This document shows positions 1,386 through 55,788 of a stretch of 64,000 nt of DNA, piece after piece. Where the stretch lies: NCBI GenBank assembly GCA_965650885.1, contig CBFGQI010000009.1:185-64184 (forward strand), in the 5' to 3' direction. This DNA comes from an uncultured Oxalobacteraceae bacterium (lineage in GTDB: Bacteria; Pseudomonadota; Gammaproteobacteria; Burkholderiales; Burkholderiaceae_D). The notes under the pieces were generated by a model. That model searched no databases. It had not been told where the DNA came from and saw nothing but the letters and a program-made list of their open reading frames with translations. Position numbers and translations under genes: made by a program. The stretch's first letter is position 1; every line of letters starts with the position of its first letter.

Positions 1386-1389
<4 letters not shown>
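1..1389 (+). CDS. Hsp70-family (actin-like ATPase fold) protein, 5' end cut by window edge
   Basis: Reading frame is open from nt 1. Hsp70 nucleotide-binding motifs are present (TIPASFD, LLEEPQAALY, VVDVGGGTSDFS, LGGDNMDLALA), followed by a beta-rich C-terminal part. Its stop overlaps the next start as ATGA at 1386-1389. Confidence 0.8.
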
Positions 1390-4215
<2,826 letters not shown>

Positions 4216-4223
<8 letters not shown>

Positions 4224-4854: not shown

Positions 4855-5739
4855 CTAGGCCGATGGTCGCGCGCCCAGCAATTCTTCCAGCTGCGCGATC
4901 TGCGCCGGATCCTTGACCACGGCACGCAGCCACTCGTGCAGCGGCAATTCGCCCCAGCTGGCCGCCTTGTCGGCCAGGTAGGCGACGGGACTATGCGGCT
5001 CGCTGCGGCGGAAGAACTCCGCCACCAGGCGCAGCTGCGCCAGCGCCTGCGCGCGCGACTGCGGCATGGCGGGCTGGCCGGCAGCGTAGCCGCCGCCGGT
5101 GCCGCTGGCACCGCCGGCGCCGGCAGCGGTAGCGCCGCCACTGGCCGACGGCGCATTGCACTCCGCATCGGCAACGGCCTGCTGCAGGGCTTCACGCGCC
5201 GGCCCGAAAGCTGGACCGGCGGCGCCCAGGCGGGCGTCGACGACGGCTTGCAATTGCTGCAGGGCCGACAAGCAATGCCGCGCATCGTGCAGGCAAGCCT
5301 CGGCATCGCCTTCGCATGGGTAATCGCGCGCCAGCGCCGGGGTGCGCCCCAGCAGCCAGGCCAGGTTGCCGCTGCGCTGCTCATGCTCGCCGCCTTCGGG
5401 CAAGGGGTGGACATGCTCCCAGAACCGCTCGCACAGGCCGGCCAGCAGCAGGAAGCCATCGCCCAGCCCGCGCAGGCGGTGGGTGTGGGCACGCGCTTCC
5501 GCCAGCCACACCGCCAGGCGCAAATCCTTGCTGCGCGAGCGCAGCAGCTCGGCGCAGCGGTTTGCCACCAATGGCCAATCGGCGCTATGCAATGGCGCGG
5601 TCCACTCGCCCTGTTCCAGCGTCGGGTCGTCCTGCCGCCGCGCGGCCGCGATGGCATCCATGCAGGCGTCGAACGACACATCTTCCCCGCAGGGCTGGCT
5701 GACGCTGACCGGCACCAGTAAATCCTCATTGGTAAACAT
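4855..5739 (-). CDS. tssA: T6SS TssA/ImpA-family protein (short, N-terminal ImpA domain type)
   Basis: ImpA_N-like N-terminus (PVSVSQPCGEDVSFDACMDAI ... SKDLRLAVWLAEA). Last T6SS gene after clpV. GGGGGA RBS upstream of the ATG. Confidence 0.75.
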   Translation of the reverse strand: MFTNEDLLVPVSVSQPCGEDVSFDACMDAIAAARRQDDPTLEQGEWTAPLHSADWPLVANRCAELLRSRSKDLRLAVWLAEARAHTHRLRGLGDGFLLLAGLCERFWEHVHPLPEGGEHEQRSGNLAWLLGRTPALARDYPCEGDAEACLHDARHCLSALQQLQAVVDARLGAAGPAFGPAREALQQAVADAECNAPSASGGATAAGAGGASGTGGGYAAGQPAMPQSRAQALAQLRLVAEFFRRSEPHSPVAYLADKAASWGELPLHEWLRAVVKDPAQIAQLEELLGARPSA

Positions 5740-5747
5740 GGTTCCCC

Positions 5748-8354
5748 CTACCTGGTCGTGATGCGGAACTGGCCCTGGCGCGTGACGCCGGCCCGGATCT
5801 TCGCCAGCGGCGCGCCTTCCGCCATGCGTGCCAGCAGCACGTCGGCCAGGCCGGGCAACAGGCTGCCATGCAGGATATTGTCGATATTGCGCGCGCCCGA
5901 ATCGGTTTCGGTGCAGCGCGCCAGTACCGCCTGCACCAATGCCTCATCCCAGCAGAATTCCGCGTGGTGCTGCTCGCCGATGCGCTGGCCGATGCGGCCC
6001 AGCTTGAGCGCGATGACCTGGGCCAGCGCCTCGTCGGAAATCGGATAGTAGGGCACCACCTGCAGCCGGCCCAGGAAGGCGGGCTTGAAATGGCGCACCA
6101 ACTGCGGCCGCAGCAGCGTATCGAGTTGCTCCGGCGTCGGCAGCGGCGCGTCGCCGCGGTTCAGGCAGGCCTGCATGATGGCGCCCGAACCCAGGTTCGA
6201 CGTCAGCACGATGACGGTATTGCTGAAGTCGACCAGTTGCCCTTCCGCGTCTTCCAGCGTGCCGCGGTCGAACACCTGGTAGAACAGTTCCAGCACATCG
6301 GGATGCGCCTTGTCGGCTTCGTCGAGCAGCACCACGCAATACGGGTTGCGCCGCACCGCCTCGGTCAGCACGCCGCCCTCCCCGTAGCCGACGTAGCCAG
6401 GGGGCGAGCCTTTCAGGCCGGCCACGCTGTGCGGCTCCTGGTATTCGCTCATGTTGATGGTGACCAGCTTGCGCTCCCCGCCGAACAGCAGGTCGGCCAG
6501 GGCCAGCGCCGTCTCGGTCTTGCCGACACCGGACGGGCCGGTCAGCAGGAACACGCCTTTCGGCTTGCGCGGGTCGTCCAGGCCGGCGCGCGCGGTGCGC
6601 ATGCGCTGGACGATGGCGGCCACCGCATGCGCCTGTCCAAGCACGCGCGACTCCAGCGCGGGCTTGAGCTGCTGCACGGTGCGGATCTCGTCGCGCAGCA
6701 TACGCCCGACCGGAATGCCGGTCCATGCCGCGACCACGCCGGCGACCACGTGGCGGTCGACCTCCAGCGGCACCATCGGCGATTCGCGCTGCAAGGCTTG
6801 CAGCTCCTGTTGCGCACCGGCCGCCGCGGCCGCGTCGCCCTGCTGGCGCAGCGCCACCACGCGGCTGCACAAGTCGCGCTCGCGCTCGTGGCGCGCCGCC
6901 AGCTCGGCGTGCCAGGCTTGCAGGCTGCCCCGTTCGTCACGCAGGGCCGGCAGCGGTGACGGCGGAGCGCCATCCTGCCCGGCCCCGGCCTGCGCATCGC
7001 GCTCCAGCGCGGCAATGCGCACCGACAGGCGCGCGATCTGGCACGCGGCATCCTCCAGCAGCGCCGGCGGGGCGCACTGGCCCAGGGCGACCCGGGCGCA
7101 GGCCGTATCGAGCACGCCGACCGCCTTGTCCGGCAACTGGCGGCTGTTGATGTAGCGGTGGGCAAGGCGCACCGCTGCCGTCACGGCGTCGTCGCGCACG
7201 CGCACGCCGAAATGGCGCTCCATCAGCGGCACCATGGCACGCAGCATGGCCGCCGCGGTCTCCTCGTCCGGCTCCTCCACCTTGACCACCTGGAAGCGCC
7301 GCGCCAGCGCGGCGTCCTTCTCGAAATAGCGCTTGTATTCGCTCCAAGTCGTGGCGGCGATGGTGCGCAGTTCGCCGCGCGCCAGCGCAGGCTTGAGCAG
7401 GTTGGCGGCGTCGCCCTGCCCCGGCGCGCCGCCGGCACCGATCATCGTATGCGCTTCGTCAATGAACAGCACCACCGGATGCGGGCTGCTGCGCACCTCG
7501 TCGATCACATTCTTCAGGCGCGCCTCGAATTCGCCGCGTACGCTGGCGCCAGCCTGCAATAGCGCCAGGTCGAGCGCATGCAGCGCAACATTCTGCAGGG
7601 GCGGCGGCACCTCGCCGGCGGCGATACGCAGGGCCAGCCCTTCCACCACGGCGGTCTTGCCCACGCCCGCCTCGCCGGTCAGGATGGGATTGTTCTGGCG
7701 CCGGCGCAGCAGGATGTCCATCAATTGCCGCACTTGCGCCTCCCGCCCCACCACCGGATCGAGCTTGCCGTCGCGCGCCAGCTGGCACAGGTTGACCGTG
7801 TACTGGGCCAGCGCGGGCGCGGGCGTCGGCGCCGTCAACGCCTGCGCGCCGTCGGCCGGCAGCGCAGCCACGGCGTCTTCGGCCGAACCGGCGGTATATT
7901 TTTCCAGCCGGTGCTTCAAGCCATCGACCGGAAAGCGCGCGAACAGGCCGGAGATGCGGGCGGCCTGCTGCGACAGTTCCGACTCGGTCAACAACGCCAG
8001 CAGCAGATGGCCGCTGCGTACCTGGTCCGGCTGCGGCAAGGCGAGCGAGGCGATCAGCCAGGCGTGCTCCAGCATCAGTTGCAGGCGCCGGGCAAACACC
8101 GGGACCCGGGCCGCGGCGAGCCGCACGGCGGCCAGCTCGCGCCGCAAGTCCGCTTCCAACGCCGTCGGGCTGACGTCGCAGCGCCGGGCGATCGCCAGCA
8201 CGTCGCAACCGGGCTGCTCCAGCAAGGCAAGCAGCAAATGCTCGACGTCGACTTCGCCGTGTCCCATGCCAATGGCGATGTTGGCAGCGCGGGTGGCGGC
8301 ATGGCGGCAGGTGCCGTTCAGCTTTCCGATCAGGGTTTTCAACTGGATACTCAT
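5748..8354 (-). CDS. clpV: T6SS AAA+ ATPase ClpV (TssH)
   Basis: Clp N-domain followed by two Walker A boxes (GEAGVGKT, GPSGVGKT). 868 aa. Sits inside the T6SS operon. Confidence 0.95.
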   Translation of the reverse strand: MSIQLKTLIGKLNGTCRHAATRAANIAIGMGHGEVDVEHLLLALLEQPGCDVLAIARRCDVSPTALEADLRRELAAVRLAAARVPVFARRLQLMLEHAWLIASLALPQPDQVRSGHLLLALLTESELSQQAARISGLFARFPVDGLKHRLEKYTAGSAEDAVAALPADGAQALTAPTPAPALAQYTVNLCQLARDGKLDPVVGREAQVRQLMDILLRRRQNNPILTGEAGVGKTAVVEGLALRIAAGEVPPPLQNVALHALDLALLQAGASVRGEFEARLKNVIDEVRSSPHPVVLFIDEAHTMIGAGGAPGQGDAANLLKPALARGELRTIAATTWSEYKRYFEKDAALARRFQVVKVEEPDEETAAAMLRAMVPLMERHFGVRVRDDAVTAAVRLAHRYINSRQLPDKAVGVLDTACARVALGQCAPPALLEDAACQIARLSVRIAALERDAQAGAGQDGAPPSPLPALRDERGSLQAWHAELAARHERERDLCSRVVALRQQGDAAAAAGAQQELQALQRESPMVPLEVDRHVVAGVVAAWTGIPVGRMLRDEIRTVQQLKPALESRVLGQAHAVAAIVQRMRTARAGLDDPRKPKGVFLLTGPSGVGKTETALALADLLFGGERKLVTINMSEYQEPHSVAGLKGSPPGYVGYGEGGVLTEAVRRNPYCVVLLDEADKAHPDVLELFYQVFDRGTLEDAEGQLVDFSNTVIVLTSNLGSGAIMQACLNRGDAPLPTPEQLDTLLRPQLVRHFKPAFLGRLQVVPYYPISDEALAQVIALKLGRIGQRIGEQHHAEFCWDEALVQAVLARCTETDSGARNIDNILHGSLLPGLADVLLARMAEGAPLAKIRAGVTRQGQFRITTR

Positions 8355-8809
8355 GCGATGCCTCCGCGCTTGATGGAATAGTGCAGCGACGATGGCTGCA
8401 AGGCGGCACTGAAGCTGACCGCTTCACAGGTGCCCTGCGCCCGCAGCATGCCGCTGATGACGATATCGATGCGATTGACGGTGCCGGGCGATCCGGCCAG
8501 TGCGACTTCCACATTGCACAGGCGCGGCTCGTAGCGCTCCACTGCCTGCCGCACGCAGCCGCAGATGCGTCCGCGGTCTTCGCTGCCGCTATGCGACAGG
8601 CCGGCGAAATCGGCCAGGCCGAAGTTCAGGATCGAGGCGGCGCACTCAGGGTAGGCCTGCAGCAGTTGCTGCGGCAGCGCCGTACGGGTATTGAGCAGGA
8701 TTTCCAGGTCGCGTGCCACGCTATCCTTCAATTGTTCCTGCGACAGGAAGCGCCCGCCGGCGTGGCTTCCCAGCAAGCGCTCCAGCAATCCTGGCCTGTA
8801 GCCGTCCAT
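8351..8809 (-). CDS. tssE: T6SS baseplate protein TssE (gp25-like)
   Basis: Motifs LLERLL ... DSVARDLEILLNTR ... NFGLADFAGLS. Start chosen at the internal ATG (8809) with a GGAGA RBS. Its stop overlaps the clpV start as ATGA. Confidence 0.85.
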   Translation of the reverse strand: MDGYRPGLLERLLGSHAGGRFLSQEQLKDSVARDLEILLNTRTALPQQLLQAYPECAASILNFGLADFAGLSHSGSEDRGRICGCVRQAVERYEPRLCNVEVALAGSPGTVNRIDIVISGMLRAQGTCEAVSFSAALQPSSLHYSIKRGGIA

Positions 8810-8821
8810 GGCGCATCTCCG

Positions 8822-8856
8822 AAAAAAACGGCTGCAGCGCTGGCGCGCCGCAGCCG
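8822..8856 (-). terminator. Intrinsic terminator/attenuator hairpin between hcp and tssE
   Basis: On the minus strand: GCGGCTGCGGCGC-GCCA-GCGCTGCAGCCG followed by T7. The 12-bp stem has one mismatch. It starts 16 nt after the hcp stop. Confidence 0.65.
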
Positions 8857-8871
8857 CAACTCCCTCCAAAA

Positions 8872-9363
8872 TCAGACGATGCGGTTGGCCGCCAAGTCCC
8901 AGCCGCCCGAGGTGTTGCCGCCCACGCCGCCGGAAATGCGTTGTTGCGTGTACTTCCAGCGCACTTTGGAGAACTTCATGCCCACTTCCTCGGTCAGGAT
9001 GTCGCCCTCGCTTACCGACGGCGACACCGCGCCGATCAGCACGTTATCCAGTTCGATTTCGAAGTATTTGACCCGCTCGCCCTGCGCATCGGCACGCATG
9101 AATTCCAGCTTGGCCTTGGGGATGGTGCGCCCGGCCGCACAGGTTTGCAGCAGGATCGGCGAAGCCAGGTCGGCCAGCTTGGTGATCACGACATCGCGGT
9201 GCTCGCAACGCTCGGCCGTATGGCCGCCGCCGGTGGAGGACGTGGCCGAACGCGGCTGCTCAACCGCCCAGCTGACCGATTTGCACTCGATCCAGTCCTT
9301 GTGGCGGTCATCGGCCGATTCGCCCTTGATGCCGTCGATATGCAGGTAGACGTCAATTGCCAT
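8872..9363 (-). CDS. hcp: T6SS inner tube protein Hcp (TssD)
   Basis: MAIDVYLHIDGIKGESADDRHKDWIECKSVSWAVEQP is a classic Hcp N-terminus. 163 aa. Confidence 0.95.
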   Translation of the reverse strand: MAIDVYLHIDGIKGESADDRHKDWIECKSVSWAVEQPRSATSSTGGGHTAERCEHRDVVITKLADLASPILLQTCAAGRTIPKAKLEFMRADAQGERVKYFEIELDNVLIGAVSPSVSEGDILTEEVGMKFSKVRWKYTQQRISGGVGGNTSGGWDLAANRIV

Positions 9364-9377
9364 CGCAATACTCCTTT

Positions 9378-10859
9378 TCAGTGGTTGGTGGTTTGCGGCA
9401 GTTCCGCCACGAGGCGGAGCGACACCGTCAGCTCGTCGAGCTGGAAGTGGGGCCGCAGGAAACTCACGGCCCGGAATACGCCGGGACGCCCCGGCATCTC
9501 GCTGACCTGGACCGATGCTTCGCGCAGCGGAAACAGTGCTTTCTGTTCCTGGCTGGCGTTATCGTCCAGCAGCACGTATTTCATCAGCCAGCGGTTCAGG
9601 AAGTCTTCGACATTGGCGGCGGCGGCGAAGCTGCCGATCTTGTCGCGCATCATGGCCTTCATGTAGTGCGCGATGCGCGACACGGCAAAGATGTATTGCA
9701 ACTGGGACGACAGCACGGCATTGGCATTGGCGGCCTCGGAGCTGTAACGCATGGTCTTTTGCGCCGACTGCGCGCCGAAAAAGGCGGCATAGGCAGTGTT
9801 CTTGCAATGGACCAGGGAAATGAAGCCCAGATCGCTCAGTTCCTTCTCGCGCCGGTCGGTGATGGCCACCTCGGTCGGGCATTTCAGCGCCACCTCGCCT
9901 TCGTCGGTCTTGAAGGTATGGGTCGGCAAGTCGTCCACCAGGCCGCCGCCCTCCACGCCACGGATGGCGGCGCACCAGCCGAACTGCTCGTGCGCCTTGG
10001 TCAAGCGGGCGCCAAACGCATAGGCGGCATTGCACCACAGGTATTTATGGTGGTCGCGGCCGTCCACCTCCTCGACGAAATTGAAGCCTTCCACCGTGGT
10101 ACCGTCGACGGGATTGTAGGGCAGGCGACCGAGGAAGCGCGGCAGCGTCAAGCCCACGTAGCGTGCATCTTCGGATTCGCGGAACGCCTTCCACTTCGCG
10201 TATTCGACGGTATCGAACACCTTGGCCAGGTCCCGCGGCTTGCCCAGGTCGCCGTAGCTCTCCAGGCCGAACAGTTCGGGCGCCGCTGCGCTGATGAACG
10301 GTGCGTGGGCCGCCGCTGCCAGGTGCGACATCTGTTCGATGAAATAGATATCTTCCGGCTGCCGCGAAATCTCGAAGTCCCCCAGCAGCGCCGCATACGG
10401 CGAACCGCCGAAGGTGCCGAATTCCTCCTCATAGACTTTCTTGAAGATGGTGCTCTGGTCGAACTCCAGCGCGCTCTGGAAATCGCGTACCAGTTCGCGC
10501 TTGCTGGCGTTCAGCATGCGCACTTTCAGCGTCGGTCCGCTTGCCGTGTTGCGCACCAGGTAATGCAGGCCGGTCCAGCTGCGTTCGAGGTTCTGGAACG
10601 CCGGCGTGTGCATGATGGCGCTCAACTGGTCGGAGATCATGCGGTCCAGCTCCGCCACCCGCGCATCGATGGTGGCCGACAGGTTATGCGACATCTGCAC
10701 GCTGCCCTGCACCACCTGGCGCGCCAGCTCACCGATGATGTGGCGCGCGCGTTCGTGTTCGCTGCTGGACTTGGCCACCTTGCTTTCCTCGACAATGCGG
10801 TCCAGCAGGTCGCCCTCTTCCGCTACGGCCGGCGCGGCGGCCATCAATTGCGCACTCAT
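9378..10859 (-). CDS. tssC: T6SS contractile sheath large subunit TssC (VipB)
   Basis: Roughly 490 aa with sheath motifs (GDFEISRQPEDIYFIEQMSHLAAAAHAPFISAA). ATG at 10859 is preceded by a GGAGGA RBS. Confidence 0.95.
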   Translation of the reverse strand: MSAQLMAAAPAVAEEGDLLDRIVEESKVAKSSSEHERARHIIGELARQVVQGSVQMSHNLSATIDARVAELDRMISDQLSAIMHTPAFQNLERSWTGLHYLVRNTASGPTLKVRMLNASKRELVRDFQSALEFDQSTIFKKVYEEEFGTFGGSPYAALLGDFEISRQPEDIYFIEQMSHLAAAAHAPFISAAAPELFGLESYGDLGKPRDLAKVFDTVEYAKWKAFRESEDARYVGLTLPRFLGRLPYNPVDGTTVEGFNFVEEVDGRDHHKYLWCNAAYAFGARLTKAHEQFGWCAAIRGVEGGGLVDDLPTHTFKTDEGEVALKCPTEVAITDRREKELSDLGFISLVHCKNTAYAAFFGAQSAQKTMRYSSEAANANAVLSSQLQYIFAVSRIAHYMKAMMRDKIGSFAAAANVEDFLNRWLMKYVLLDDNASQEQKALFPLREASVQVSEMPGRPGVFRAVSFLRPHFQLDELTVSLRLVAELPQTTNH

Positions 10860-10860
10860 G

Positions 10861-11355
10861 TCATTCCTCCTTGGGCGCAATGGCCGCCAACTGTTCCGTG
10901 TTTTGCAGCACTTCGCTCAGCAGATCTTCCAGCCGGTCGTTGCCTGCCAGCTTGTTGCGCAGGTCGGCCAGCTTGCCGCGCGCCTCGAGCAGCTTGCCCA
11001 GTGGCTCGACCTGGTGCACGATCGCTTCCGGCCGGAAGTCCTGCATCGACTGGAAGCGCAGCTGCACCGGGAATTCCCCTGCGCCGCCCAAGCGGTTCTC
11101 CACCTGGAAATTCAGTACCGGGTCGACCCCGGCCAGCACTTCGTCGAAGTTGTTGCTGTCGATATTGACGAAGTTGCGCTCCTTCAGCCGCTTTGGCGGC
11201 AGCGCCGGGTTGCCCCCAAAATCGCCCATGACACCGACCACGAAGGGCAGTTCCTTGTTTTCCATGGCATCGCCGACTTCCACGTCATAGGTCATCTGCA
11301 CGCGCGGCGGACGGACCTTGGTCAGGCGTTTCTGCACACTGTCACGATTTGCCAT
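10861..11355 (-). CDS. tssB: T6SS contractile sheath small subunit TssB (VipA)
   Basis: MANRDSVQKRL..RVQMTYDVEVGDAMENKELPFVVGVMGDF. The internal ATG at 11355 was chosen over the longer Arg/Pro-rich ORF start. Confidence 0.95.
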   Translation of the reverse strand: MANRDSVQKRLTKVRPPRVQMTYDVEVGDAMENKELPFVVGVMGDFGGNPALPPKRLKERNFVNIDSNNFDEVLAGVDPVLNFQVENRLGGAGEFPVQLRFQSMQDFRPEAIVHQVEPLGKLLEARGKLADLRNKLAGNDRLEDLLSEVLQNTEQLAAIAPKEE

Positions 11356-11365
11356 TTGCTGCTCC

Positions 11366-11947
11366 TTATTTGAGTGCACCGAAGGGATCGGCGTTGGTGG
11401 AGGGATTGGGCGCAGTGCGCGGCGCCGGCACCTTGATCGGTGGCGCGGCCTTCCTGGGCTGGCGCGGGGCGCCGGCAACCGGCACCAGCACATCTTCGCC
11501 CAGCGTGGTGCGCAGCATGCGCGCCAGTTCCTGCGCTTCGCTGCGCACCGTGCCGCCCAGATTGCTTTGCCGGCTCAAGTCCGCCAGCGAGCGTATCGAC
11601 AAACGCAGGCCGCTGACAGCGACGATGCTGAGCGCCTGTTTGTCGCTTGGGTCACGTTGCAGCGCCTCCTGCGCCTGCACGATGGCTTCACTGTAGTTGC
11701 CGCGGTCGAAGCGCATTTGCGCCATTTGCAGCCATGGCGCCTTATCCGCCGGGTAGCTCGCCGCCGCAGCTTTCAGCGCCGCCTGCGACTTTTCCGGTTC
11801 GCCGGCCGCGGCGGCGCGGTCGGCATCGGCCATCATGCTTTCCAGCGATTGCTGAACGGCCCTCTCGCTGCGTGGCAGCGGAGCTTCTGTGGCGCAGCCT
11901 GCCAGCGTGGCGACGCCTATCAGCGTTGCAATCAATGATTTGCGCAT
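11366..11947 (-). CDS. T6SS-associated lipoprotein, helical/TPR-like with Pro-rich tail
   Basis: Signal peptide with lipobox (LIGVATLAGC). Strong RBS (GAAGGAGGGA). First gene of the tssB operon. Function unknown. Confidence 0.6.
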   Translation of the reverse strand: MRKSLIATLIGVATLAGCATEAPLPRSERAVQQSLESMMADADRAAAAGEPEKSQAALKAAAASYPADKAPWLQMAQMRFDRGNYSEAIVQAQEALQRDPSDKQALSIVAVSGLRLSIRSLADLSRQSNLGGTVRSEAQELARMLRTTLGEDVLVPVAGAPRQPRKAAPPIKVPAPRTAPNPSTNADPFGALK

Positions 11948-12042
11948 CGTTCCCTCCTTCTGCAAAGTGAAGGCCATTATCGAAGCGATGCGTGCGCTTG
12001 CCATTGCGTTGTCTCAAACAGCAGGGACTTGGCTGCCGCGCT

Positions 12043-12075
12043 GTTTGCGACAGCGCAAACGCGCACCGCGTGCGC
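12043..12075. promoter_or_regulatory. Two adjacent palindromes in the divergent T6SS promoter region (candidate operator)
   Basis: GTTTGCG-acag-CGCAAAC (12043-12060) is immediately followed by GCGCAC-cgc-GTGCGC (12061-12075). Both lie between the lipoprotein/tssB operon and tssK. Confidence 0.3.
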
Positions 12076-12110
12076 CCAGCTCTAATGGATACTCAACCAA
12101 GGAGGCCGGC

Positions 12111-13415
12111 ATGACATACCCCGCGAAAGTCCTCTGGAGCGAAGGCCTGTTCCTGCGGCCGCAGCACTTCCAGCAGCAGGACCGTTACCACGAAGCCCGC
12201 ATGCACGCCGCATTGCTTGCGGCGCAGCCAATGTTATGGGGTGTGCAGCTGGTCGAGTGGGACGCGGCGGCGCTGGCCAACGGCAAGCTGCGCCTGCTGG
12301 CCTTGCGTGCCATTTTCCGCGAAGGCGAAATATTCGACGCGCCAGCCGGCGATCCGCTGCCTCCGGTCATCGAGCTTGACGCGCTGCCGCCGGAGATGCA
12401 GGAAGTGACCTACCATGCCGCGCTGCCGTCGCTGGCATCGGAACGCTTCCAGCAGAGCGAGCACGAAACGGCGGACCTGTTCAGCGAAGCCTTGCCGGCC
12501 GGACTGACCTACTTGCGCAAACAGGTACGGCTGGTGTCGGACATGGAGCCGCGCGGCGCATACGACAGCTTTCCCCTGCTGCGCCTGCGCCGCGCCGTGT
12601 CGGGCAGTTTCGAGCACGATCCCTCGTTCATGCCGCCCACTCTCTCGATCGGCGCCACGGCCCGCCTCAAACTGCTGCTGGACCAGCTGATGGATGCCCT
12701 GCAGGCCAAGGCGAATGCCCTGCAAGGCCATCTGCGCGAGCCAAGCCGCAACGTGATCGAGTTCCGCGGCAGCGACGTCTCCTCGTTCTGGCTGCTGCAT
12801 ACCGTGTCCACATCGGCGGCGACGCTGCTGCACCTGTTGCGCCATCCCGCGCTGCATCCGGAACGGCTGTACCAGGCCATGCTTGGCCTGGCGGGTGGCC
12901 TGATGACCTATTCGCGCAAGGTGCACCTGGGCAGCCTGCCGGCCTATGACCATGCCGCACCCGGGCCCGCCTTCCTGCAATTGGACGCGCTGATCCGCGA
13001 ATTGCTCGACACCGTGATCTCCGCGCGCTATTTCGCCATCGCGCTGCGCGAGGAAAAGCCTGGCTACCACATCGGCAAGCTCGATTCCGGCAAGATCGGC
13101 GCCGGCGCCACACTCTACCTGGCCATGGCCGCCGCCATGCCGCTGCTGGAACTGGTCGATGCGGTGCCGCTGCGCGTCAAGGCGGGCGCACCGGACGACG
13201 TGGAGCAGTGCGTGCTGTCGGCCATGCCGGGCGTCAAGCTGGTGCATGCCCCCCAGGTGCCCTCCGCCATCCCGGTGCGTCCCGACACCTGCTATTTCGC
13301 GCTGGAGAACCGCGGCGTGCTGTACGAGCAGATGCTCAAGGCGCAATCGATTTCCATCTACGTGCCCGCAGGGATCAAGGAACTGCGGCTCGAACTCCTG
13401 GTGGTGACAGCATGA
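12111..13415 (+). CDS. tssK: T6SS baseplate protein TssK
   Basis: N-terminal signature VLWSEGLFLRPQHFQQQDRY. AAGGAGG RBS at 12099-12105. Confidence 0.9.
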   Translation: MTYPAKVLWSEGLFLRPQHFQQQDRYHEARMHAALLAAQPMLWGVQLVEWDAAALANGKLRLLALRAIFREGEIFDAPAGDPLPPVIELDALPPEMQEVTYHAALPSLASERFQQSEHETADLFSEALPAGLTYLRKQVRLVSDMEPRGAYDSFPLLRLRRAVSGSFEHDPSFMPPTLSIGATARLKLLLDQLMDALQAKANALQGHLREPSRNVIEFRGSDVSSFWLLHTVSTSAATLLHLLRHPALHPERLYQAMLGLAGGLMTYSRKVHLGSLPAYDHAAPGPAFLQLDALIRELLDTVISARYFAIALREEKPGYHIGKLDSGKIGAGATLYLAMAAAMPLLELVDAVPLRVKAGAPDDVEQCVLSAMPGVKLVHAPQVPSAIPVRPDTCYFALENRGVLYEQMLKAQSISIYVPAGIKELRLELLVVTA

Positions 13416-14158
13416 GCCATTTCATCGAACGGCGCGCAGCGCCGCCCCAGCAACGCGCGCCGGCCCTGGTGGACTTGATGCACGAGGGCTTCCACATGCT
13501 TTCCCTGCTGCGCCATGGCAGCGTGCCGCCGGGGGAGGCGGAATTCGCGGCCGCCATCCGCGGCTTCCTCGATACCGTCGGCAGCGAGGCGCGCGCGCAG
13601 CACATTGCCGCGGAAGACATCGAGGCGGCCCAGTACGCATTCTGCGCCGCGCTGGATGAAGCGATCCTGGCGTCGCGCTTCCCGCTGCGCAGCGCATGGG
13701 AACGCAGGCCCTTGCAATTGCTGCTGTTCGGCGACCAGCTCGCCGGCGAGCACTTCTTCGACAAGCTGGAGCAATTGCGCCTGCGCGGCAGCGAAAGGCT
13801 GCAAGCCTTGCAGGTCTTCCATATGTGCCTGCTGCTTGGCTTCAAAGGGCGCTACGCGCTGGACGGCGCCGACCGGCTGGCCTACCTGGCCGCCCGGCTG
13901 GGCGACGAAATCGCCCACCTGCGCGGCAAGGGAAAGGGCTTTGCGCCGCGCGCCGCGCGACCCGATAACGTCGCCCATAAGCTGCAAAGCAACGGCCCTT
14001 TGTGGATCGCCGGCGCCGTCTTCGGGCTGGCCGCCGCGTCCGCGTTCGGGGCCATGCGCTACTCGCTGGACAGCACCACCGATGCCGCGCTGGCCGGCTA
14101 CCAGGATGTCGTCAAGCAGCCGCCGCGCCAGGCCACGCTGCACGTGACCCTGCCTTGA
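13412..14158 (+). CDS. tssL: T6SS membrane complex protein TssL (DotU family), no peptidoglycan-binding extension
   Basis: ATGA overlap with the tssK stop. DotU-like cytoplasmic domain plus a single C-terminal TM segment (LWIAGAVFGLAAASAFGA). Confidence 0.85.
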   Translation: MSHFIERRAAPPQQRAPALVDLMHEGFHMLSLLRHGSVPPGEAEFAAAIRGFLDTVGSEARAQHIAAEDIEAAQYAFCAALDEAILASRFPLRSAWERRPLQLLLFGDQLAGEHFFDKLEQLRLRGSERLQALQVFHMCLLLGFKGRYALDGADRLAYLAARLGDEIAHLRGKGKGFAPRAARPDNVAHKLQSNGPLWIAGAVFGLAAASAFGAMRYSLDSTTDAALAGYQDVVKQPPRQATLHVTLP

Positions 14159-14164
14159 ACGGCA

Positions 14165-14929
14165 TCAGTCGGCGACGCGGAACTCGATGCGCCGGTTGCG
14201 CGCCCGGCCGTCGGCGCTGGTATTGTCCGCCACCGGCTGGTCCGGCCCGGCGCCGGCAATCGCAATGCTGGCCGCGGCGATACCCTTGCCGGCCAGGTAG
14301 CTGCGCACGGCACCGGCGCGCGCCAGGCTGAGCGACAGGTTGGCTTCGCGCGAGCCGGTATTGTCCGTGTGGCCGATCACTTCCACCTTGCGTTCGCCGA
14401 TCTGCATCATCGCCGCCGCCATTTCGTCCAGGATCTGCAGGCCGGAGGGCCGGAGCACGGCTTGTCCGCTTTCAAACTCGATGATGCGGCGCGCCAGCGC
14501 GCCATCGAGCACCTTCTGCGCAGGTGCGTTGACGCGCAAGCCATTGCTGATCGTGTAGCTCGGGTTCAGGCTGTTGGCCAGTGCGCTGGCCACCTGCTGG
14601 CGCAGCGCTTCGTTGGCGACGTCGCCACGGATCCCGACCCGGTTGCCTTCCACCGCCAACTGGCCCTGCGCCACTTGCTTCAACGGCTCGGACAGCAACT
14701 TCTGCATATGGCTGCTCCAGTTGGGCGGCGCCACGACATTGCCGACCACCAGTTGGTCCACCACACGCGCGGCGCCGTACAAGGACCGCAAGCGCTGCAC
14801 GATGGCCGCCTTGGTCGCCTCGTCCGGCACTGTGCCGGAAACCACCACAGGCAGGCTGCTGCCGGCTGGCGCCACCTGCGCGGCAGCCGCAGTGCAAATG
14901 ACACAGGTGATCGCGGCAAGGGGTCGCAT
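14165..14929 (-). CDS. BON-domain / OmpA-C-like peptidoglycan-binding protein (TagN/TagL-like accessory candidate)
   Basis: Signal peptide and BON-like repeats. OmpA_C motif (GHTDNTGSREANLSLSLARAGAVRSYL ... NRRIEF). Confidence 0.85.
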   Translation of the reverse strand: MRPLAAITCVICTAAAAQVAPAGSSLPVVVSGTVPDEATKAAIVQRLRSLYGAARVVDQLVVGNVVAPPNWSSHMQKLLSEPLKQVAQGQLAVEGNRVGIRGDVANEALRQQVASALANSLNPSYTISNGLRVNAPAQKVLDGALARRIIEFESGQAVLRPSGLQILDEMAAAMMQIGERKVEVIGHTDNTGSREANLSLSLARAGAVRSYLAGKGIAAASIAIAGAGPDQPVADNTSADGRARNRRIEFRVAD

Positions 14930-14944
14930 GGTTCCGTCTCCCAG

Positions 14945-15883
14945 TCAGCAAAAGGTTTCTCCGAACAGCCGTATGGCAGCGGGCAATCCAAGCTGCTCCT
15001 GCTCGAGGCAAGCGGCCAGGCGCTGCAAGGCGGGTTCGCCGCCGAGCTCCTGCTCGACCCAGGCGCAGTCGCTGAGGAACACCATGCTTTCCTGCGCCGT
15101 GTCCGGATCGATGACGGCGCGCAGGCTGGCCGGGTTGGCGCCATCCAAGCCCAGGACCAGGGCCGGCTGGCCGCCGGCGCGGGCCAGGAACATGGCCAAT
15201 TCCAGGTCCTGGCGCGTCAACAGCGGCGCCGCCAAGGTCATCCAGAACGAGGCGACCGCCAGCCGCAATGCCGCGTCGTGCGGCAGGGGCAAGGCCAGGC
15301 AGCGCGACGGCAGCGGCGCGCGCCGGCGCAGCGGCGACAGCAGCAGCCCCAATGCGAGCAGCAGGCGCCGCGCCCGTGCGCTGCCGGACCGGCCCGGCAG
15401 CGACGCTTCCAGGTCGGCCAGGCAGGCGCCGGCCAGGTAGCCGTCCAATTGCGCGCGCCCCGCCGCCAGGTCCGGCAGGCCGCCCGGCGCGAGGCCTTCG
15501 GGCCGCCGCACCTCGGCCGCACCGGCGGCCGCCGCCAGCCCGGCCCAGGCCGGCGCCAGGGCCAGCGGGCTGCACGGCAGGAAGTCGCGCGGCTGCGCCA
15601 CCTGGTGCACCCACAGGCAGGCAAACGGGAAGCGCCGCGCCGACTGGTCGCGGCTGGCCAGCAGGTGCCCGGCGACGACCTGGCGCGAACGCGTCCCGAC
15701 GAAGGCGAAATCGAGCGGCGCACATGCATCGTAATGTTGCCGCCAGCGCGGATTGGCCGCCAGGCCTTGCATGGCGTTGGCCAGCCATTGGTCGGTCAGT
15801 TCCACCAGCACCTGGTCGCCCGGCGAACGCACGAAGTCGCCGCATTCCGGCAACTTGCCGAAGTAGGCAATGCGGCCCGTCAT
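14945..15883 (-). CDS. tagF: T6SS-associated protein TagF
   Basis: N-terminal YFGKLPECGDFV signature. ATGA overlap with the tssM stop. Confidence 0.85.
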   Translation of the reverse strand: MTGRIAYFGKLPECGDFVRSPGDQVLVELTDQWLANAMQGLAANPRWRQHYDACAPLDFAFVGTRSRQVVAGHLLASRDQSARRFPFACLWVHQVAQPRDFLPCSPLALAPAWAGLAAAAGAAEVRRPEGLAPGGLPDLAAGRAQLDGYLAGACLADLEASLPGRSGSARARRLLLALGLLLSPLRRRAPLPSRCLALPLPHDAALRLAVASFWMTLAAPLLTRQDLELAMFLARAGGQPALVLGLDGANPASLRAVIDPDTAQESMVFLSDCAWVEQELGGEPALQRLAACLEQEQLGLPAAIRLFGETFC

Positions 15884-18800
15884 GGCGCGCTTCCTTTGCC
15901 GGCGACCGACTCGGGCAGGCGCATGCCGCGGAAGCCGCCGGCCTCCTGCCCGCCACCGGCCGCGCTGGTGATGCGCAGGTCCACCGTGACGGCAATGGCG
16001 CCATTATTCCAGCGCAGTTCATGCACGCCGCCCTCCTTGCGCGTGCGCGCGGCCGAGTCGATCATCCGGCGCATGCCGGCGGCGCCGCTTTCGCTGAACA
16101 GTTCCACCACCTTGCCGTCGGGCGTGACGCCGCTGATCCGTACCGCGCCGGTGCCTTGCGGTCCCGGATAGACCATATTCGTCCATTGCGGCACGCCGTT
16201 ACGAAAGCGCAGCAGCTGGCCATCGATCTCCAGCGAATATTCGGCAAGTCCGGCGGCGCCGTGCGGCAACAGCTGGAACACCGTCTGCGGCGATGCCGCC
16301 ACGCCTCCGGCTGACAGGGGCGCCATCCATGCCGGGAAGCGCTGCAAGGTCTGCGGCGCAATGCTGATCCCCATGTCGGCCCAGGTGCGCGGCGCCAGCA
16401 CGTCGCCGCGCCGCACCACCAGCGCGCCAAGCGAGCCGGCGACGAACTTGGCGATGGCCCCATCCGGCCCGAACACCTGGCCGATCTCGGCCTGGCTGGC
16501 CTCCGCGCTCCCGCCTGGCGCGAAGGGAAACTTGGCTGCCAGCGTGCGCATGAAGGGCTGGTAGACTTGCGCCTGCCATGTCTTGTTGATTTCCGCTTCC
16601 GTGGGGCCCACCAGGCCCGCAAACGCCTGCATCAGCGGCCTGACCAGCAAAGGACGGATGGCCAGCTTCTGCGCCTCGGTCATGCCCGCCATCATCTGCT
16701 CGTCCACGTGGCGCACCGCATCGGCCAGCTCGGAGCCGTTGCCTTCCAGCGTCTGCTGCATCAATTGCCGGGCACCGGGACCCGGGTCGCCCTGGTTACG
16801 TATGCCGTTCAGCCGTGCCCGCAAGCGCGACAGGTGCTCGAGATATGTGCGCATCAGGGAGGCATCCTTGTCGCGCGTCGCCAGCAGGCCGGCCAGCGGC
16901 GCAAACTCGCGGCCAAGGGAGCCAGCCTGCGGCAGCGCCGCCGCCACCGCAGCGGCCGCGGGCGCCCGCTCGAACAGGCGCGATTTGATCCATTGCGCCA
17001 GCCCCGGATCGGCCTGGCGCATGGTGCCGTCCTGCAGGCCCAGGTGGTCCCAGCCCGTTTGCGCGACCACCGTGCTCCACACTTTCAGCAGCGGCGAAAT
17101 CGTGGGGTCGCCCAGGCGGTTCATGGCTTCCACCGTACGCGGGAAGTCCGGCATGCCGGCAATTGCCACGCCCTGCAGGAAGGCTTGCCATTCCCTGGCA
17201 TATTCGGCCTTGTAGCTTTCGGTGAGTGCCTTCTGCACCTGTTCCGGACTGCCTTCCAGCGTCAAGTCGTTGCGCTCCGCTGTTTTCAGCACCCAGTCGC
17301 TCGATTGCAGGGTACTGTTTGCCGCCTCGCTGATCGCCGCGCGCACATAGCCTTCCCAGGCTTCGCGGGTGAACGCCCCGGAAACCGCATGGCTGCCCAG
17401 CACCAGCGCGCGGTCTTGCTCGCCAACGATGCGCGACACCGTCATGGCGGGATAGCGCGTGCTGGCGCGGGCCTTGATCCCGGCGTAGACGCGTTCGCGC
17501 GCCGTCATGCCGCGCACCAGCTGCCGCAAGTGTTCGCGCGCCGCGTCGACCAGTGCCAGCCTGGGCTCGATGCGCGGCCAGGCCGGGTCGTTGACCTGGG
17601 TCAGGTAAAAGGCCAACAAGGATTCGGCGCTGCGCAACAGCTGCTCACGCGGCATCGCCCCGCGGTTGGTTTCCAGCCAGGTGCGCCAATGGCGCGTCAA
17701 CTGGTCGCCGAGGTGGCTGGTTTCGGCATGGGATTTATCGGCCAGCATCAGGTAGGCTTTCAAGGCATTGTATGCATCTTCCACCTTGCCAGGTTCCCGT
17801 CCGGACAATTGCGCTTCCAGGCTGCCGGCGACCGGTTTCAGCAGGATCTCCGCCATCCCTTTGAAATATTCGCTGCGCAGCTTTCGCTCCAGTGTATGGC
17901 CCTGGTACAGGCCCAGTCCCAACAGCCATGGGGTTTCGCGGTCCAGCTTATCGAGCTGCTCGATCCGATCCTGCAACAGTTGCAGCGCTTCCAGGCGCGA
18001 TTGCAGGTCCGGCCGCTGCGCTTGCAGCTTGACGACCTTGTCCAGGTCCGCCGCCGCATGCGCGACCAACTGCGCATTGCCGGAGTACGCCCAGGTCCAG
18101 GCGCCCAGCAGCGCGCCCAGCAGGAGCGTCGCGACTGCCAAGCCGCCATTGCGCAACAGCCGCTGCCTGCGGCTGGCGTATTGCGAGACCAGGTCCTTGT
18201 CGGCAAAGATCACGTCGCGGAACAGGCGTGACAGGAAATAGCCGGCCGCCGCGGCGGGGCGTGCGGCACCATCGGCCGGCCGGGCCAGGCCGAAGCGCTG
18301 GGCGACGCGCTGGGATTGCGTGCACAAGGGATGCCCCTCCTGCAACGCGCTGGTGAAGTAGTAGCCCCGGAACACCGGCCGGAACTGGAAAGGGTTGTCT
18401 TCGAACAGCGTCGCGAGGAAGGCCTTCAGCGGGGCACGCAGGGCGGCAAATTCCAGGGGAAAGGTATGCACGCCGGCAGGCACCAGTTCGCGGCGGCGCT
18501 GCGTCATGGTGGCGACGGCCATATCGCGCAGGCCGTCGCACAATTCATCGAAACTCTGTTCGAAGAACGCCAGCATGTCGCGGCAGCCCGCCTTCTGGCG
18601 GAACGGCATCGTTGCGCCCCACGGGCGCTCGCGCTCCGGCGTATCGGCATCGATGAAGAATTCGGCAAATCCCGCCACCAGGTCGGCTTTGGTGAACATC
18701 ACGTACACGGGCGCGAAGACTTCCAGCTTTTCGATCAAGTCCTGCACGCGCTGGCGCAGGCTGCGCGCCAGCGCCAGCACGGCCTCGGGATCTTCGCCGC

Positions 18801-19473
18801 GCAGCTCGGCGATGCTGACGGCGATGATGATGCCGTTGACCGGTGCCCGCGGCCTGTGCTTCTTCAGCAAGCCAAGGAAGCCGTGCCACTCTTCCCTGTC
18901 GGCGGCTTGCACCGCATAACGGCCAGCCGTATCGAGCAGGATGCCTTGCGCCGTGAAGAACCAGTCGCAATGGCGCGTACCGCCGACACCCTGGATCGCC
19001 CTCGGATCCGAAAAGGGGAATTGCAGGCCGGATTGCGTAATGGCGCTGCTCTTGCCCGCCGCCGGGTTGCCGATCACCATATACCAAGGGAGTTCGTACA
19101 GCGCGCGGGCACCGGTGGCGCGGCCAAGGCGCGAATTCCTGATGGTGCCGACGGCTTCCGCCATCGCATTGCGCACCGCTTCGAGGTCGGCCTCGGCACG
19201 CCTTTCGGCAGGCGCCACAGGTTCGGCTTCGCGCCGCCGCGCCAGGTAGCGGCGCGCGCCCCAAACCGCCAGGGCCAGCAGGGCGAGCGCCGCGACGGCC
19301 GCCACCGCCCATACCAGCGCAAGTTGCAGGAGTTCGGCGCCGAGGAAGAACAGGCCCGCCACCAGGGCGAGAGCCAGGACGTTCAAAGTGCGCCTGTCTG
19401 TCAGCAGGTACCAGGTTCGTTGCAGCATGATGGGCTGAGAAAAGGTGGGCAGGTTGGCCGATGTTGCCACCAA
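15880..19473 (-). CDS. tssM: T6SS membrane complex protein TssM (IcmF)
   Basis: N-terminal TM segments, Walker A (GNPAAGKSS) and an IcmF-type periplasmic region, ~1190 aa. Start is uncertain: TTG at 19473 or ATG at 19428. Confidence 0.95.
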   Translation of the reverse strand: MVATSANLPTFSQPIMLQRTWYLLTDRRTLNVLALALVAGLFFLGAELLQLALVWAVAAVAALALLALAVWGARRYLARRREAEPVAPAERRAEADLEAVRNAMAEAVGTIRNSRLGRATGARALYELPWYMVIGNPAAGKSSAITQSGLQFPFSDPRAIQGVGGTRHCDWFFTAQGILLDTAGRYAVQAADREEWHGFLGLLKKHRPRAPVNGIIIAVSIAELRGEDPEAVLALARSLRQRVQDLIEKLEVFAPVYVMFTKADLVAGFAEFFIDADTPERERPWGATMPFRQKAGCRDMLAFFEQSFDELCDGLRDMAVATMTQRRRELVPAGVHTFPLEFAALRAPLKAFLATLFEDNPFQFRPVFRGYYFTSALQEGHPLCTQSQRVAQRFGLARPADGAARPAAAAGYFLSRLFRDVIFADKDLVSQYASRRQRLLRNGGLAVATLLLGALLGAWTWAYSGNAQLVAHAAADLDKVVKLQAQRPDLQSRLEALQLLQDRIEQLDKLDRETPWLLGLGLYQGHTLERKLRSEYFKGMAEILLKPVAGSLEAQLSGREPGKVEDAYNALKAYLMLADKSHAETSHLGDQLTRHWRTWLETNRGAMPREQLLRSAESLLAFYLTQVNDPAWPRIEPRLALVDAAREHLRQLVRGMTARERVYAGIKARASTRYPAMTVSRIVGEQDRALVLGSHAVSGAFTREAWEGYVRAAISEAANSTLQSSDWVLKTAERNDLTLEGSPEQVQKALTESYKAEYAREWQAFLQGVAIAGMPDFPRTVEAMNRLGDPTISPLLKVWSTVVAQTGWDHLGLQDGTMRQADPGLAQWIKSRLFERAPAAAAVAAALPQAGSLGREFAPLAGLLATRDKDASLMRTYLEHLSRLRARLNGIRNQGDPGPGARQLMQQTLEGNGSELADAVRHVDEQMMAGMTEAQKLAIRPLLVRPLMQAFAGLVGPTEAEINKTWQAQVYQPFMRTLAAKFPFAPGGSAEASQAEIGQVFGPDGAIAKFVAGSLGALVVRRGDVLAPRTWADMGISIAPQTLQRFPAWMAPLSAGGVAASPQTVFQLLPHGAAGLAEYSLEIDGQLLRFRNGVPQWTNMVYPGPQGTGAVRISGVTPDGKVVELFSESGAAGMRRMIDSAARTRKEGGVHELRWNNGAIAVTVDLRITSAAGGGQEAGGFRGMRLPESVAGKGSAP

Positions 19474-19498
19474 GCCGGACCACGCCTCTTGAGCCGCC

Positions 19499-20224
19499 TC
19501 AAGCCCTCGTCTCGCGTGAGCGCAATTCGGTATGGCCGAAGTCCATCATGGTCCAGCGGCCGCCCCACACCATGCCGACCGATTCGGCCACCTGCCCATA
19601 CAACTGATAGCCGCGCATGGCCCAGGGATCGCGTTCGCTGATCACCAGCTTGCCTGCGCGGACGAAGGCGCAATCCGCAGCCAGTCCGTATTGATGGAAG
19701 CTCTGGAAGGCGCGCGCATTGCTGACATGGTTGCCGGCCGCCGCCAGCCGTTCCTGCCGCTCCGGACTGCGGTAACCCTCCAGCAGCGCCATCTCGTAAC
19801 CGTGGCGTTCCCGCATCACGTTGAATACCACCAGCAGCCGCTGCGCGAAGTCCTGGTCCAGGCGCTGCCAATCGCGGTCGGCCTGCGACAGCATGGGCCG
19901 CAACAACTCCACGTCGGCGCTGGCGAAGGCCAGCGGCGGCGGGGGCGGCGGCGGCACCAGCTGCTCGCCGTGCAGCAAAGCGGTAATGAGCGGGTCGGCA
20001 CTGCGCTGACCGTCGTCGAACACGGGAAGCATCTGCCGCGGACGCAGCCAACGCACCAGCAAAGGCGGCATGCCTGCCAGGAAGGCGGTGCCGGCGCCGA
20101 TCAGCAGCAGGCGGCGCTGGCGCCGGCAGGGCTTGCGCCTGGGTGGAAAGAGCAACAGCCAGCCAGTGGCGCTGGCAGCGACGAAGATGCCGGCAACGAT
20201 AAATGGCAACATGGTGCGTTCCAT
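19499..20224 (-). CDS. Membrane-anchored peptidase M15 (VanY/L,D-endopeptidase-like; TagX-like)
   Basis: N-terminal TM segment (MLPFIVAGIFVAASATGWLLLF). Zn-binding H-x6-D (SFHQYGLAAD) and a second His (DFGHTE). Directly upstream of tssM in the same orientation. Alternative ATG at 20212. Confidence 0.75.
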   Translation of the reverse strand: MERTMLPFIVAGIFVAASATGWLLLFPPRRKPCRRQRRLLLIGAGTAFLAGMPPLLVRWLRPRQMLPVFDDGQRSADPLITALLHGEQLVPPPPPPPLAFASADVELLRPMLSQADRDWQRLDQDFAQRLLVVFNVMRERHGYEMALLEGYRSPERQERLAAAGNHVSNARAFQSFHQYGLAADCAFVRAGKLVISERDPWAMRGYQLYGQVAESVGMVWGGRWTMMDFGHTELRSRETRA

Positions 20225-20315
20225 CAATACGAAAGCGCATGAGGCGCGCGACACTTGCATCCTATGCCGTCCTGCATCCGGATGGGTCGAGCAAGATCAA
20301 GCTTTGGGAGGACTT

Positions 20316-52611: not shown

Positions 52612-52612
52612 T

Positions 52613-53272: not shown

Positions 53273-53344
53273 GACAGCTCCTTTAATGATTGGCTTGGCG
53301 GGATCAATATCGTGCCATGCCGTCATTATCAAAGCAATACGTTT

Positions 53345-54531: not shown

Positions 54532-54539
54532 TCGTCGTT

Positions 54540-55764: not shown

Positions 55765-55788
55765 ATAGTCTCGCGAAAAGTGCAGCGT

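Follow-up and report, generated by a model that had tools for sequence, protein, structure and literature searches.

The 64,000-nucleotide stretch analyzed here (hereafter the window) comes from an uncultured Oxalobacteraceae bacterium and carries a locus for a type VI secretion system (T6SS) without tssF and tssG, whose products form the core of the baseplate wedge and bind TssE, TssK, and VgrG. Genes were called from a listing of open reading frames (ORFs) filtered by GC content at third codon positions (GC3), and were then assigned with Pfam and NCBIfam equivalog models. This gave 13 intact genes at positions 4855-20260, distributed in a minus-strand block (4855-11947), a plus-strand block (12111-14158), and a second minus-strand block (14165-20260), as listed in Table 1. 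A thirteen-gene T6SS locus had been proposed in a preliminary description of the same DNA, and both model collections confirmed it, with its end corrected from 20224 to 20260. The nine core proteins TssA, TssB, TssC, Hcp, TssE, TssH/ClpV, TssK, TssL, and TssM were all present and full-length by Pfam, and TssA, TssE, TssK, TssL, TagF, TssH, and TssM all scored above the curated NCBIfam equivalog cutoffs. The only genes of the locus without a T6SS-specific model were those of the 193-aa TPR lipoprotein, which matched none of the T6SS-specific NCBIfam models, and of the M15 peptidase.

The stop codon of tssE and the start codon of clpV share the bases ATGA at 8354-8351 on the minus strand, and the junction reads ...GGCATCGCATGAGTATC..., confirming in the sequence the overlap described before. 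TssF and TssG of the A lineage (see below), taken from a neighbouring complete cluster, gave no tblastn match in any frame of the window at E ≤ 10, and no match was obtained across the window at E ≤ 1e-3 with TssF and TssG of the B lineage, two types of VgrG, PAAR, or TssJ. The earlier statement that the locus encodes none of these five components was thus upheld. No VgrG or PAAR Pfam domain was detected on any large ORF of the window, and the ORFs of at least 600 aa were all otherwise assigned (HSP70-like/DUF3731, DUF748/AsmA, tannase-like, TonB receptor, subtilase, GH95, UvrB, and Rhs). No degraded remnants of tssF or tssG were found in the window or in 15 related loci of the type B defined below, and over about 14 kb to the left of the cluster and about 44 kb to its right there is no tssF, tssG, or vgrG. 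As had been claimed, the genes on either side are unrelated: a DTW-domain gene and two HSP70-like genes on the left, and an alpha/beta hydrolase gene and a DUF748/AsmA-like gene on the right.

Table 1. Genes and intergenic region of the T6SS locus, in window coordinates. Bit scores are followed by the curated cutoff where there is one.
Feature	Position	Strand	Description
tssA	4855-5739	-	294 aa, short form; PF06812 ImpA_N 124.5 bits; TIGR03363 TssA 281 bits vs cutoff 160.85
clpV/tssH	5748-8354	-	868 aa; TIGR03345 TssH 1172.7 bits vs cutoff 884.95
tssE, gp25-like baseplate subunit	8351-8809	-	152 aa; PF04965; TIGR03357 104.5 bits vs cutoff 53.2
hcp, tube protein	8872-9363	-	163 aa; PF05638 141 bits
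tssC, large sheath subunit	9378-10859	-	493 aa; PF05943 + PF18945; type-B motif LVHCKNT[A/S]YAAFFG
tssB, small sheath subunit	10861-11355	-	164 aa (also 164 aa in ENA contigs); PF05591 189 bits
TPR-repeat lipoprotein, lipobox LAGC	11366-11947	-	193 aa; TPR Pfam matches; first gene of tssB operon
Divergent intergenic (promoter) region between TPR-tssB and tssK-tssL operons	11948-12110	.	From sequence; position of tssJ in most other type-B clusters
tssK, connector of baseplate and membrane complex	12111-13415	+	434 aa; PF05936 404 bits; TIGR03353 412 bits vs cutoff 100
tssL, DotU-type, without peptidoglycan-binding extension	13412-14158	+	248 aa; PF09850; TIGR03349 176 bits vs cutoff 89.95
OmpA/BON peptidoglycan-binding protein, TagN-like accessory	14165-14929	-	254 aa; PF00691 OmpA + PF04972 BON
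tagF	14945-15883	-	312 aa; PF09867; TIGR03373 94 bits vs cutoff 41.2
tssM	15880-19473	-	1182-1197 aa depending on start codon (ENA contigs: 1182 aa); four IcmF domains; TIGR03348 706 bits vs cutoff 388
Peptidase_M15_4/VanY-like peptidoglycan peptidase, TagX-like	19499-20260	-	253 aa, hydrophobic N-terminus; PF13539 43 bits

When 11 of the 13 genes were compared with those of the two closest genomes by the Nei-Gojobori method (tssM and the M15 gene were left out), ratios of nonsynonymous to synonymous substitution (dN/dS) between 0.04 and 0.26 were obtained, including 0.14-0.19 for tssE and 0.09-0.12 for tssK. The locus is under purifying selection and is not a decaying relic.

Relatives of the locus were collected by a ClpV-based scan of GTDB species genomes and sorted by layout. 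In the layout that we called type A, 2.9 kb encoding TssF and TssG separates tssE from clpV, and it was found in Oxalobacteraceae, Burkholderia, Paraburkholderia, Cupriavidus, Achromobacter, Xanthomonas, and others. In type B, tssE abuts clpV, tssA comes directly after clpV, and tssM-tagF-tagN lies beyond tssL-tssK, giving the order tssM-tagF-tagN / tssL-tssK / TPR-tssB-tssC-hcp-tssE-clpV-tssA, to which the window conforms. The synteny comparison among related Oxalobacteraceae found this layout, with tssE against clpV, in 15 loci from seven genera (Pseudoduganella, Janthinobacterium, Duganella, Massilia, Rugamonas, Telluria, and Zemynaea), often with the DTW gene downstream. A neighbor-joining tree of concatenated TssB, TssC, TssK, and ClpV recovered a type B clade, a type A clade, and a clade of both, each with 100/100 bootstrap support; type B was monophyletic and sister to Oxalobacteraceae type A plus Undibacterium, and the window fell inside the type-B clade. 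The lineages also differ in one TssC residue, which is Ala or Ser in the type-B motif of Table 1 and Asp in every other cluster examined. A degenerate DNA pattern of this motif was present in 20 of 20 type-B loci with tssC and in 0 of 230 other loci, and among GTDB species genomes it marked at least 119 stretches; the named ones all belong to Oxalobacteraceae genera, and the rest are metagenome-assembled genomes (MAGs) with higher-rank labels only. Fifty-four of the first 80 pattern-matched loci cover both tssE and clpV, and the two genes abut in 51 and are 430-814 bp apart in three, with tssF or tssG between them in none of the 54. The locus is a TssJ-less member of a proteobacterial, paralogous type-B lineage that is confined to Oxalobacteraceae. 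Two further candidate markers of type B, the Hcp motif GGHTAERCEH and the TssA motif FFRRTEPH, were dropped, as they are common to type A or outgroup clusters.

The nearest relatives of the window were Pseudoduganella sp. R-43, the MAG SMAGNO151 (Pseudoduganella), and P. violaceinigra DSM 15887, with 79-96% protein identity for most genes, 69-75% for TagF, and 73-80% for the TPR lipoprotein. TssJ (PF12790) is encoded upstream of tssK in most other type-B loci, as shown by the domain in one locus and by tblastn matches in many, and there was no tblastn match to it in the window or in the type-B loci of these three relatives; the small clade of the window has lost tssJ. It was also observed that Oxalobacteraceae type A clusters have no tssJ, the space from tssK to the TPR gene being only about 300 bp, and that the outgroup clusters of Burkholderiales and Xanthomonas have it. 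Since neither T6SS cluster of the window's clade encodes TssJ, both machines may be TssJ-independent. Further gene losses were seen elsewhere in type B, where some clusters gave no tssE match between hcp and clpV: hcp was confirmed to adjoin clpV directly in three Rugamonas species and in J. fluminis, D. fentianensis, and D. qianjiadongensis, and tssK, too, is gone from R. fusca and R. brunnea. The copy in Janthinobacterium sp. CG3 is probably degraded, since the DTW gene comes directly after hcp there and both clpV and tssA are missing. The extra DNA that Janthinobacterium carries between tssA and the DTW gene encodes a solute-binding protein, a lipocalin, and a methyl-accepting chemotaxis protein, and was discarded as a source of baseplate genes.

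Next, we located tssF and tssG in the genomes that carry type-B clusters, and every relative that could be examined has them at another place. In Pseudoduganella sp. R-43, a complete type A cluster with the layout tssL-tssK / TPR-tssB-tssC-hcp-tssE-tssF-tssG-clpV / tssA-tagN-tagF-tssM occupies 2.10-2.13 Mb, and the type B cluster is at 5.01-5.03 Mb. In SMAGNO151 and P. violaceinigra, the type A cluster lies on a contig other than that of type B, and vgrG adjoins tssL in both. Massilia/Telluria is represented by 23 species with a stand-alone baseplate module in place of the full type A cluster, and at least 12 of the 23 were confirmed to carry type B. In the complete chromosome of Telluria sp. 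B2, this module is 3.4 Mb away from the type B cluster, set among glmU, glmS, and a molybdo-hydroxylase gene, and has tssK, PAAR, and a 459-aa gene with no Pfam match on one strand and tssE-tssF-tssG on the other; its TssF grouped with the A lineage in the tree. In appearance, the Massilia-group module resembles the surviving core of a type A cluster.

A second, B lineage of TssF was exposed by a divergent tssF beside a type-B cluster, that of Rugamonas sp. CCM 8940, where the gene adjoins TPR-tssB and its product is 46-48% identical to A-lineage TssF. Each TssF scan lists the best 80 matches, and since the entries of the A-lineage scan all had at least 74% identity, B-lineage genes did not appear in it, and the absence of J. 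fluminis, TND4EL3, and others from the A-lineage scans was misleading. B-lineage TssF formed a clade of its own, sister to the A lineage with 100/100 support, and this clade mirrors the main-cluster tree. Mean identity was 55% among the members of the clade and 51% between them and the A lineage; the mean pairwise value within A is 78% over a similar range of genera, and relocated B-lineage TssF thus evolves much faster. The genes have distinctive surroundings: in J. fluminis, tssE stands beside tssF-tssG-vgrG-Tle3-Tla3-Tla3-PAAR, about 750 kb from the type-B cluster, so that the tssE absent from the main cluster reappears next to tssF-tssG; R. fusca has a tssF-tssG-vgrG-DUF2169-PAAR/RES toxin module, with neither tssE nor tssK found beside tssF-tssG; and in strain BJB404, a single contig has tssF-tssG-vgrG flanked by the type-B blocks tssM-tagF-tagN and tssK-tssL-tssJ. 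The congruence of this clade with the main-cluster tree, together with these module contexts, indicates that the B-lineage wedge genes diverged in step with type B and moved into spike-effector islands. When loci were matched by assembly accession, a tssF locus was found elsewhere in at least 47 of the 119 type-B assemblies, 39 with an A-lineage gene and eight more with a B-lineage one, and none of the 119 was shown to lack tssF among the best 80 matches per scan.

Collectively, these results make it very probable that a split T6SS has its main cluster here, with TssF, TssG, VgrG, and PAAR supplied in trans, and the organism of the window, judging by its relatives, would also have a second locus. 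A split system and a reduced baseplate had both been put forward in the preliminary description; the former is favored by the tssF-tssG loci found elsewhere in relatives of the same architecture, and nothing was found in support of the latter, which is unlikely because a second tssF-tssG-vgrG locus exists in the closest genomes (SMAGNO151 and P. violaceinigra). Under the split arrangement, the cluster would supply the membrane complex (TssL and TssM, with TagF, a TagN-like peptidoglycan anchor, and a TagX-like peptidoglycan peptidase), the sheath (TssB and TssC), the tube (Hcp), the recycling ATPase (ClpV), the cap and priming protein (TssA), and, of the four parts that make up the baseplate wedge, TssE and TssK. 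The wedge parts TssF and TssG, plus the spike proteins VgrG and PAAR, would come from another locus. TssK would then dock the TssE/F/G wedge and the VgrG hub onto TssL/TssM, TssA would prime the polymerisation of Hcp and TssBC, contraction would expel Hcp, VgrG, PAAR, and effectors, and ClpV would recycle the sheath.

As for the source of the missing parts, we give about an even chance to a complete paralogous type A cluster of the window organism (tssE-tssF-tssG-clpV, with vgrG beside tssL), and this candidate was favored because all three closest genomes carry one; the TssF/TssG wedge would then be shared by both systems. A broader version, which we put forward only tentatively, is that type B of Pseudoduganella and Massilia/Telluria has no TssF/TssG of its own lineage and might build its baseplate with the type A wedge core. 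With the same reserve, it may be supposed as part of this wedge sharing that type A of Massilia/Telluria shrank to the stand-alone tssK-PAAR / tssE-tssF-tssG module and was kept only for type B. No B-lineage TssF named Pseudoduganella, Massilia, or Telluria was found among the best 120 matches, and this weakly favors reliance on A-lineage TssF/TssG in these groups.

Several points weigh against the split system and the proposed sharing. That type B fires, and with which TssF/TssG, is so far a prediction from gene content, and the TssK and TssE proteins of the two paralogues are only 46-60% identical, so sharing TssF/TssG between them may be sterically implausible. In the window organism itself, which is known only from metagenome contigs in the ENA, the split is deduced from relatives, and no tssF or tssG was identified from its metagenome samples. 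A protein query with the TssF of R-43 was uninformative in this respect: the four ENA matches looked up (two of them at 87% and 82%) all came from other samples, and an A-lineage TssF of the window organism, at least 90% identical to the representative, would sit within a 79-member cluster. Moreover, 72 of the 119 type-B assemblies were not assigned either way among the matches listed, and some type-B loci are clearly degraded, Janthinobacterium sp. CG3 being an example.

A variant of the split system that seems possible, if doubtful, would dispense with type A: a dedicated locus of the form tssF(B)-tssG(B)-vgrG-effector-PAAR, of the B lineage and resembling those of Janthinobacterium, Duganella, and Rugamonas, may lie elsewhere in the genome. 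TssF/TssG modules of this lineage exist and have co-diverged with type-B clusters, and in the main tree the clade of the window is nested beside type-B clusters of Duganella/Rugamonas, so their shared ancestor probably had a B-lineage module. A type A cluster and a B-lineage tssF do occur together in BJB426, BJB404, and D. violaceipulchra. Against such a locus, the best 120 B-lineage TssF matches include nothing from the genera Pseudoduganella, Massilia, and Telluria even though P. violaceinigra proteins are in the database, and the flanks of the cluster within the distances given above contain none; the former absence is weak evidence, because it concerns the best 120 matches only and B-lineage TssF evolves fast.

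We also considered that the locus could be a non-functional remnant, i.e., a decaying duplicate of type A that lost tssF-tssG and no longer fires. The loss of further genes from some type-B loci (tssE and tssK, and in CG3 clpV and tssA) and the complete type A system of the closest genomes would be in line with this. Decay is nevertheless very unlikely, given that all 13 ORFs are intact, the seven proteins scanned against NCBIfam equivalogs all pass, and the dN/dS values are low. The architecture is monophyletic and persists in at least 119 species across the family, a tssE missing from a main cluster reappears beside tssF-tssG, and the homologous cluster of Janthinobacterium HH102 is transcribed and regulated by quorum sensing (PMC5080296). 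Still less credible is a non-canonical baseplate without any TssF/TssG, made of TssE and TssK alone or completed by an unrecognised substitute. The bare absence of tssF/tssG from a 64-kb window, in an organism known from contigs only, is all that speaks for it, whereas the locus has no suitably sized gene of unknown function, tssF-tssG was located elsewhere in each relative open to examination, and TssF/TssG form the core of the wedge. Finally, the suspicion that assembly had dropped a segment between tssE and clpV can be dismissed, since identical ClpV, neighbours, and ATGA junction occur on contigs of six separate metagenome assemblies in the ENA (ERZ27321110-21), the two genes are likewise contiguous in the homologous loci of isolates, among them R-43 and Telluria B2 with their complete chromosomes, and no point in favor of an artefact was found.

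Among known systems, type A clusters (Oxalobacteraceae, Burkholderia/Paraburkholderia, Cupriavidus, Achromobacter, and Xanthomonas) are built from the same gene families as the window, including the TPR lipoprotein, tagF, OmpA/BON, and M15 peptidase genes, and have the same operon core TPR-tssB-tssC-hcp-tssE...clpV plus divergent tssK-tssL, with identities to the window of 80-83% for TssC, 72-75% for Hcp, and 62-64% for ClpV. They differ from it in having tssF-tssG between tssE and clpV, vgrG often next to tssL, tssA and the tagN-tagF-tssM block downstream of clpV in opposite orientation, and Asp rather than Ala/Ser in TssC. Both type A and the window cluster are presumably i4b-like in the Boyer/Barret/SecReT6 classification. 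The T6SS of Acinetobacter baumannii/baylyi is reportedly TssJ-less, with TagF, TagN, and the peptidoglycan hydrolase TagX, and its cluster is said to retain tssF and tssG between tssE and tssM and to have its vgrG genes away from the main cluster. An analogy with that system had been drawn earlier for TagF, TagN, TagX, and the missing TssJ, and it holds at the level of Pfam domains and not beyond: the window likewise has no tssJ, has TagF, an OmpA-type peptidoglycan-binding protein, and a peptidoglycan peptidase, and has no vgrG at the main cluster. Here, the OmpA+BON and Peptidase_M15_4 domains are present and syntenic with tssM and tagF, and the likeness to TagN/TagX is at the level of these domains.

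A described counterpart is the Janthinobacterium HH102 cluster Jab4_02740-02860, with the order impL impM ompA impK impJ vasD hyp impB impC hcp impF vasG impA (Haack et al. 2016, PMC5080296). It has the type-B gene order of the window with no impG/impH between impF and vasG, and unlike the window it carries vasD (tssJ) upstream of impJ (tssK). This cluster, one of two T6SS clusters of the strain, is transcribed and activated by JAI-1 quorum sensing, and the missing impG/impH (tssF/tssG) pass unremarked in the paper (PMC5080296). In two papers on strain SLB01, the T6SS is mentioned only in terms of scattered genes and "an incomplete operon", and our literature search found no description of the type-B lineage or of the relocation of tssF-tssG. 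About 9% of canonical proteobacterial T6SSs (T6SSi) are spread over several loci, and in 35% of replicons VgrG is encoded apart from the main locus (Abby et al. 2016, PMC4793230). In such multi-locus T6SSi and orphan vgrG/hcp/PAAR islands, core and spike genes act in trans from places outside the main cluster (PMC4793230), as is proposed for the window. Unlike in an ordinary multi-locus T6SSi, the relocated genes of the type-B lineage include the wedge core tssF-tssG, and in some genera also tssE and tssK, fused to vgrG-effector-PAAR islands, and the split is ancient, fixed across a family lineage, and coexists with a complete paralogous cluster.

Multi-locus T6SSs being already known, the window itself holds the main cluster of a split system and not a new kind of machine. 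What goes beyond an ordinary split cluster is the age and breadth of the lineage without tssF/tssG, the fusion of wedge genes with effector islands, and the possible sharing of a wedge between paralogues. The core genes of T6SSs are usually treated as one co-inherited block, and clusters without tssF/tssG are called "incomplete" by annotators; here, such a cluster is an ancient, conserved, and selected architecture in one family, with the wedge and spike genes in effector islands or perhaps borrowed from a paralogous system. This bears on the scoring of T6SS completeness in Oxalobacteraceae of soil, rhizosphere, and freshwater, among them Janthinobacterium, Duganella, Massilia, and Pseudoduganella. 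The family also offers a natural system for asking to what extent TssF/TssG can be exchanged between diverged machines, and whether baseplate supply is tied to the choice of payload when tssF-tssG are linked to a vgrG-effector set. If true, wedge sharing would mean that two diverged T6SSs are obliged to draw on common core structural subunits.

Some accessory features of the locus are conserved beyond type B. The TPR lipoprotein gene consistently precedes tssB, both in the two types and in clusters of the Burkholderiales outgroup, the OmpA/BON gene adjoins tagF in both types, and M15 homologues adjoin tssM in type A, type B, and Burkholderia/Paraburkholderia clusters. Alignment of TssA revealed an internal deletion in the protein of the window when compared with type-B TssA from Janthinobacterium and Massilia, which has 330-342 aa. 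The missing segment comprises about 50 central residues, absent from TssA in the window's clade and in some Duganella, Rugamonas, and Zemynaea loci, and kept in Janthinobacterium and most Massilia type-B loci (294 versus 330-342 aa).

The TTGAN6/7TCAA 'JAI-1' quorum-sensing motif has been reported upstream of the homologous cluster in Janthinobacterium HH102 (PMC5080296), and a TTGAN6TCAA element also stands upstream of tssM in the window. It is the palindrome TTGAGCCGCCTCAA at 19489-19502, between the M15 peptidase gene and tssM and immediately upstream of the latter, and a regex scan found no other TTGAN6-7TCAA in the 64 kb. With an estimated chance expectation of about 0.4 per window, TTGAGCCGCCTCAA is merely suggestive of a JAI-1-type site.

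On the left, an operon at 25-4223 comprises a DUF2760 gene and two HSP70-like genes, one of which encodes a C-terminal DUF3731 ("DnaK-related") domain. The DTW gene lies between this operon and tssA, and its presence downstream of type-B clusters in several genera marks a conserved chromosomal site. At the opposite end, the Rhs ORF (56321-64000, minus strand) is cut by the edge of the window, and the full protein in ENA contigs is 2725 aa long and combines a transglutaminase-like N-terminal domain with DUF6531 and RHS/YD repeats. This gene had been named as a possible effector encoded with the missing modules, and a link to a vgrG or baseplate module is not borne out: its upstream neighbour, reached through the downstream 171-aa gene, encodes a 3016-aa CarboxypepD_reg/Vgb_lyase repeat protein and not VgrG or PAAR, no tssF was seen there, and a cargo locus of this system was not evident. 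Downstream of the Rhs gene, the region 52500-56320 has a low GC content of 54-56%, compared with 62-72% elsewhere, and contains small ORFs (of 171 and 143 aa among others) with no Pfam matches, which resemble immunity genes or orphan cassettes. The set of these small ORFs varies among metagenome samples, suggesting a variable cassette array.

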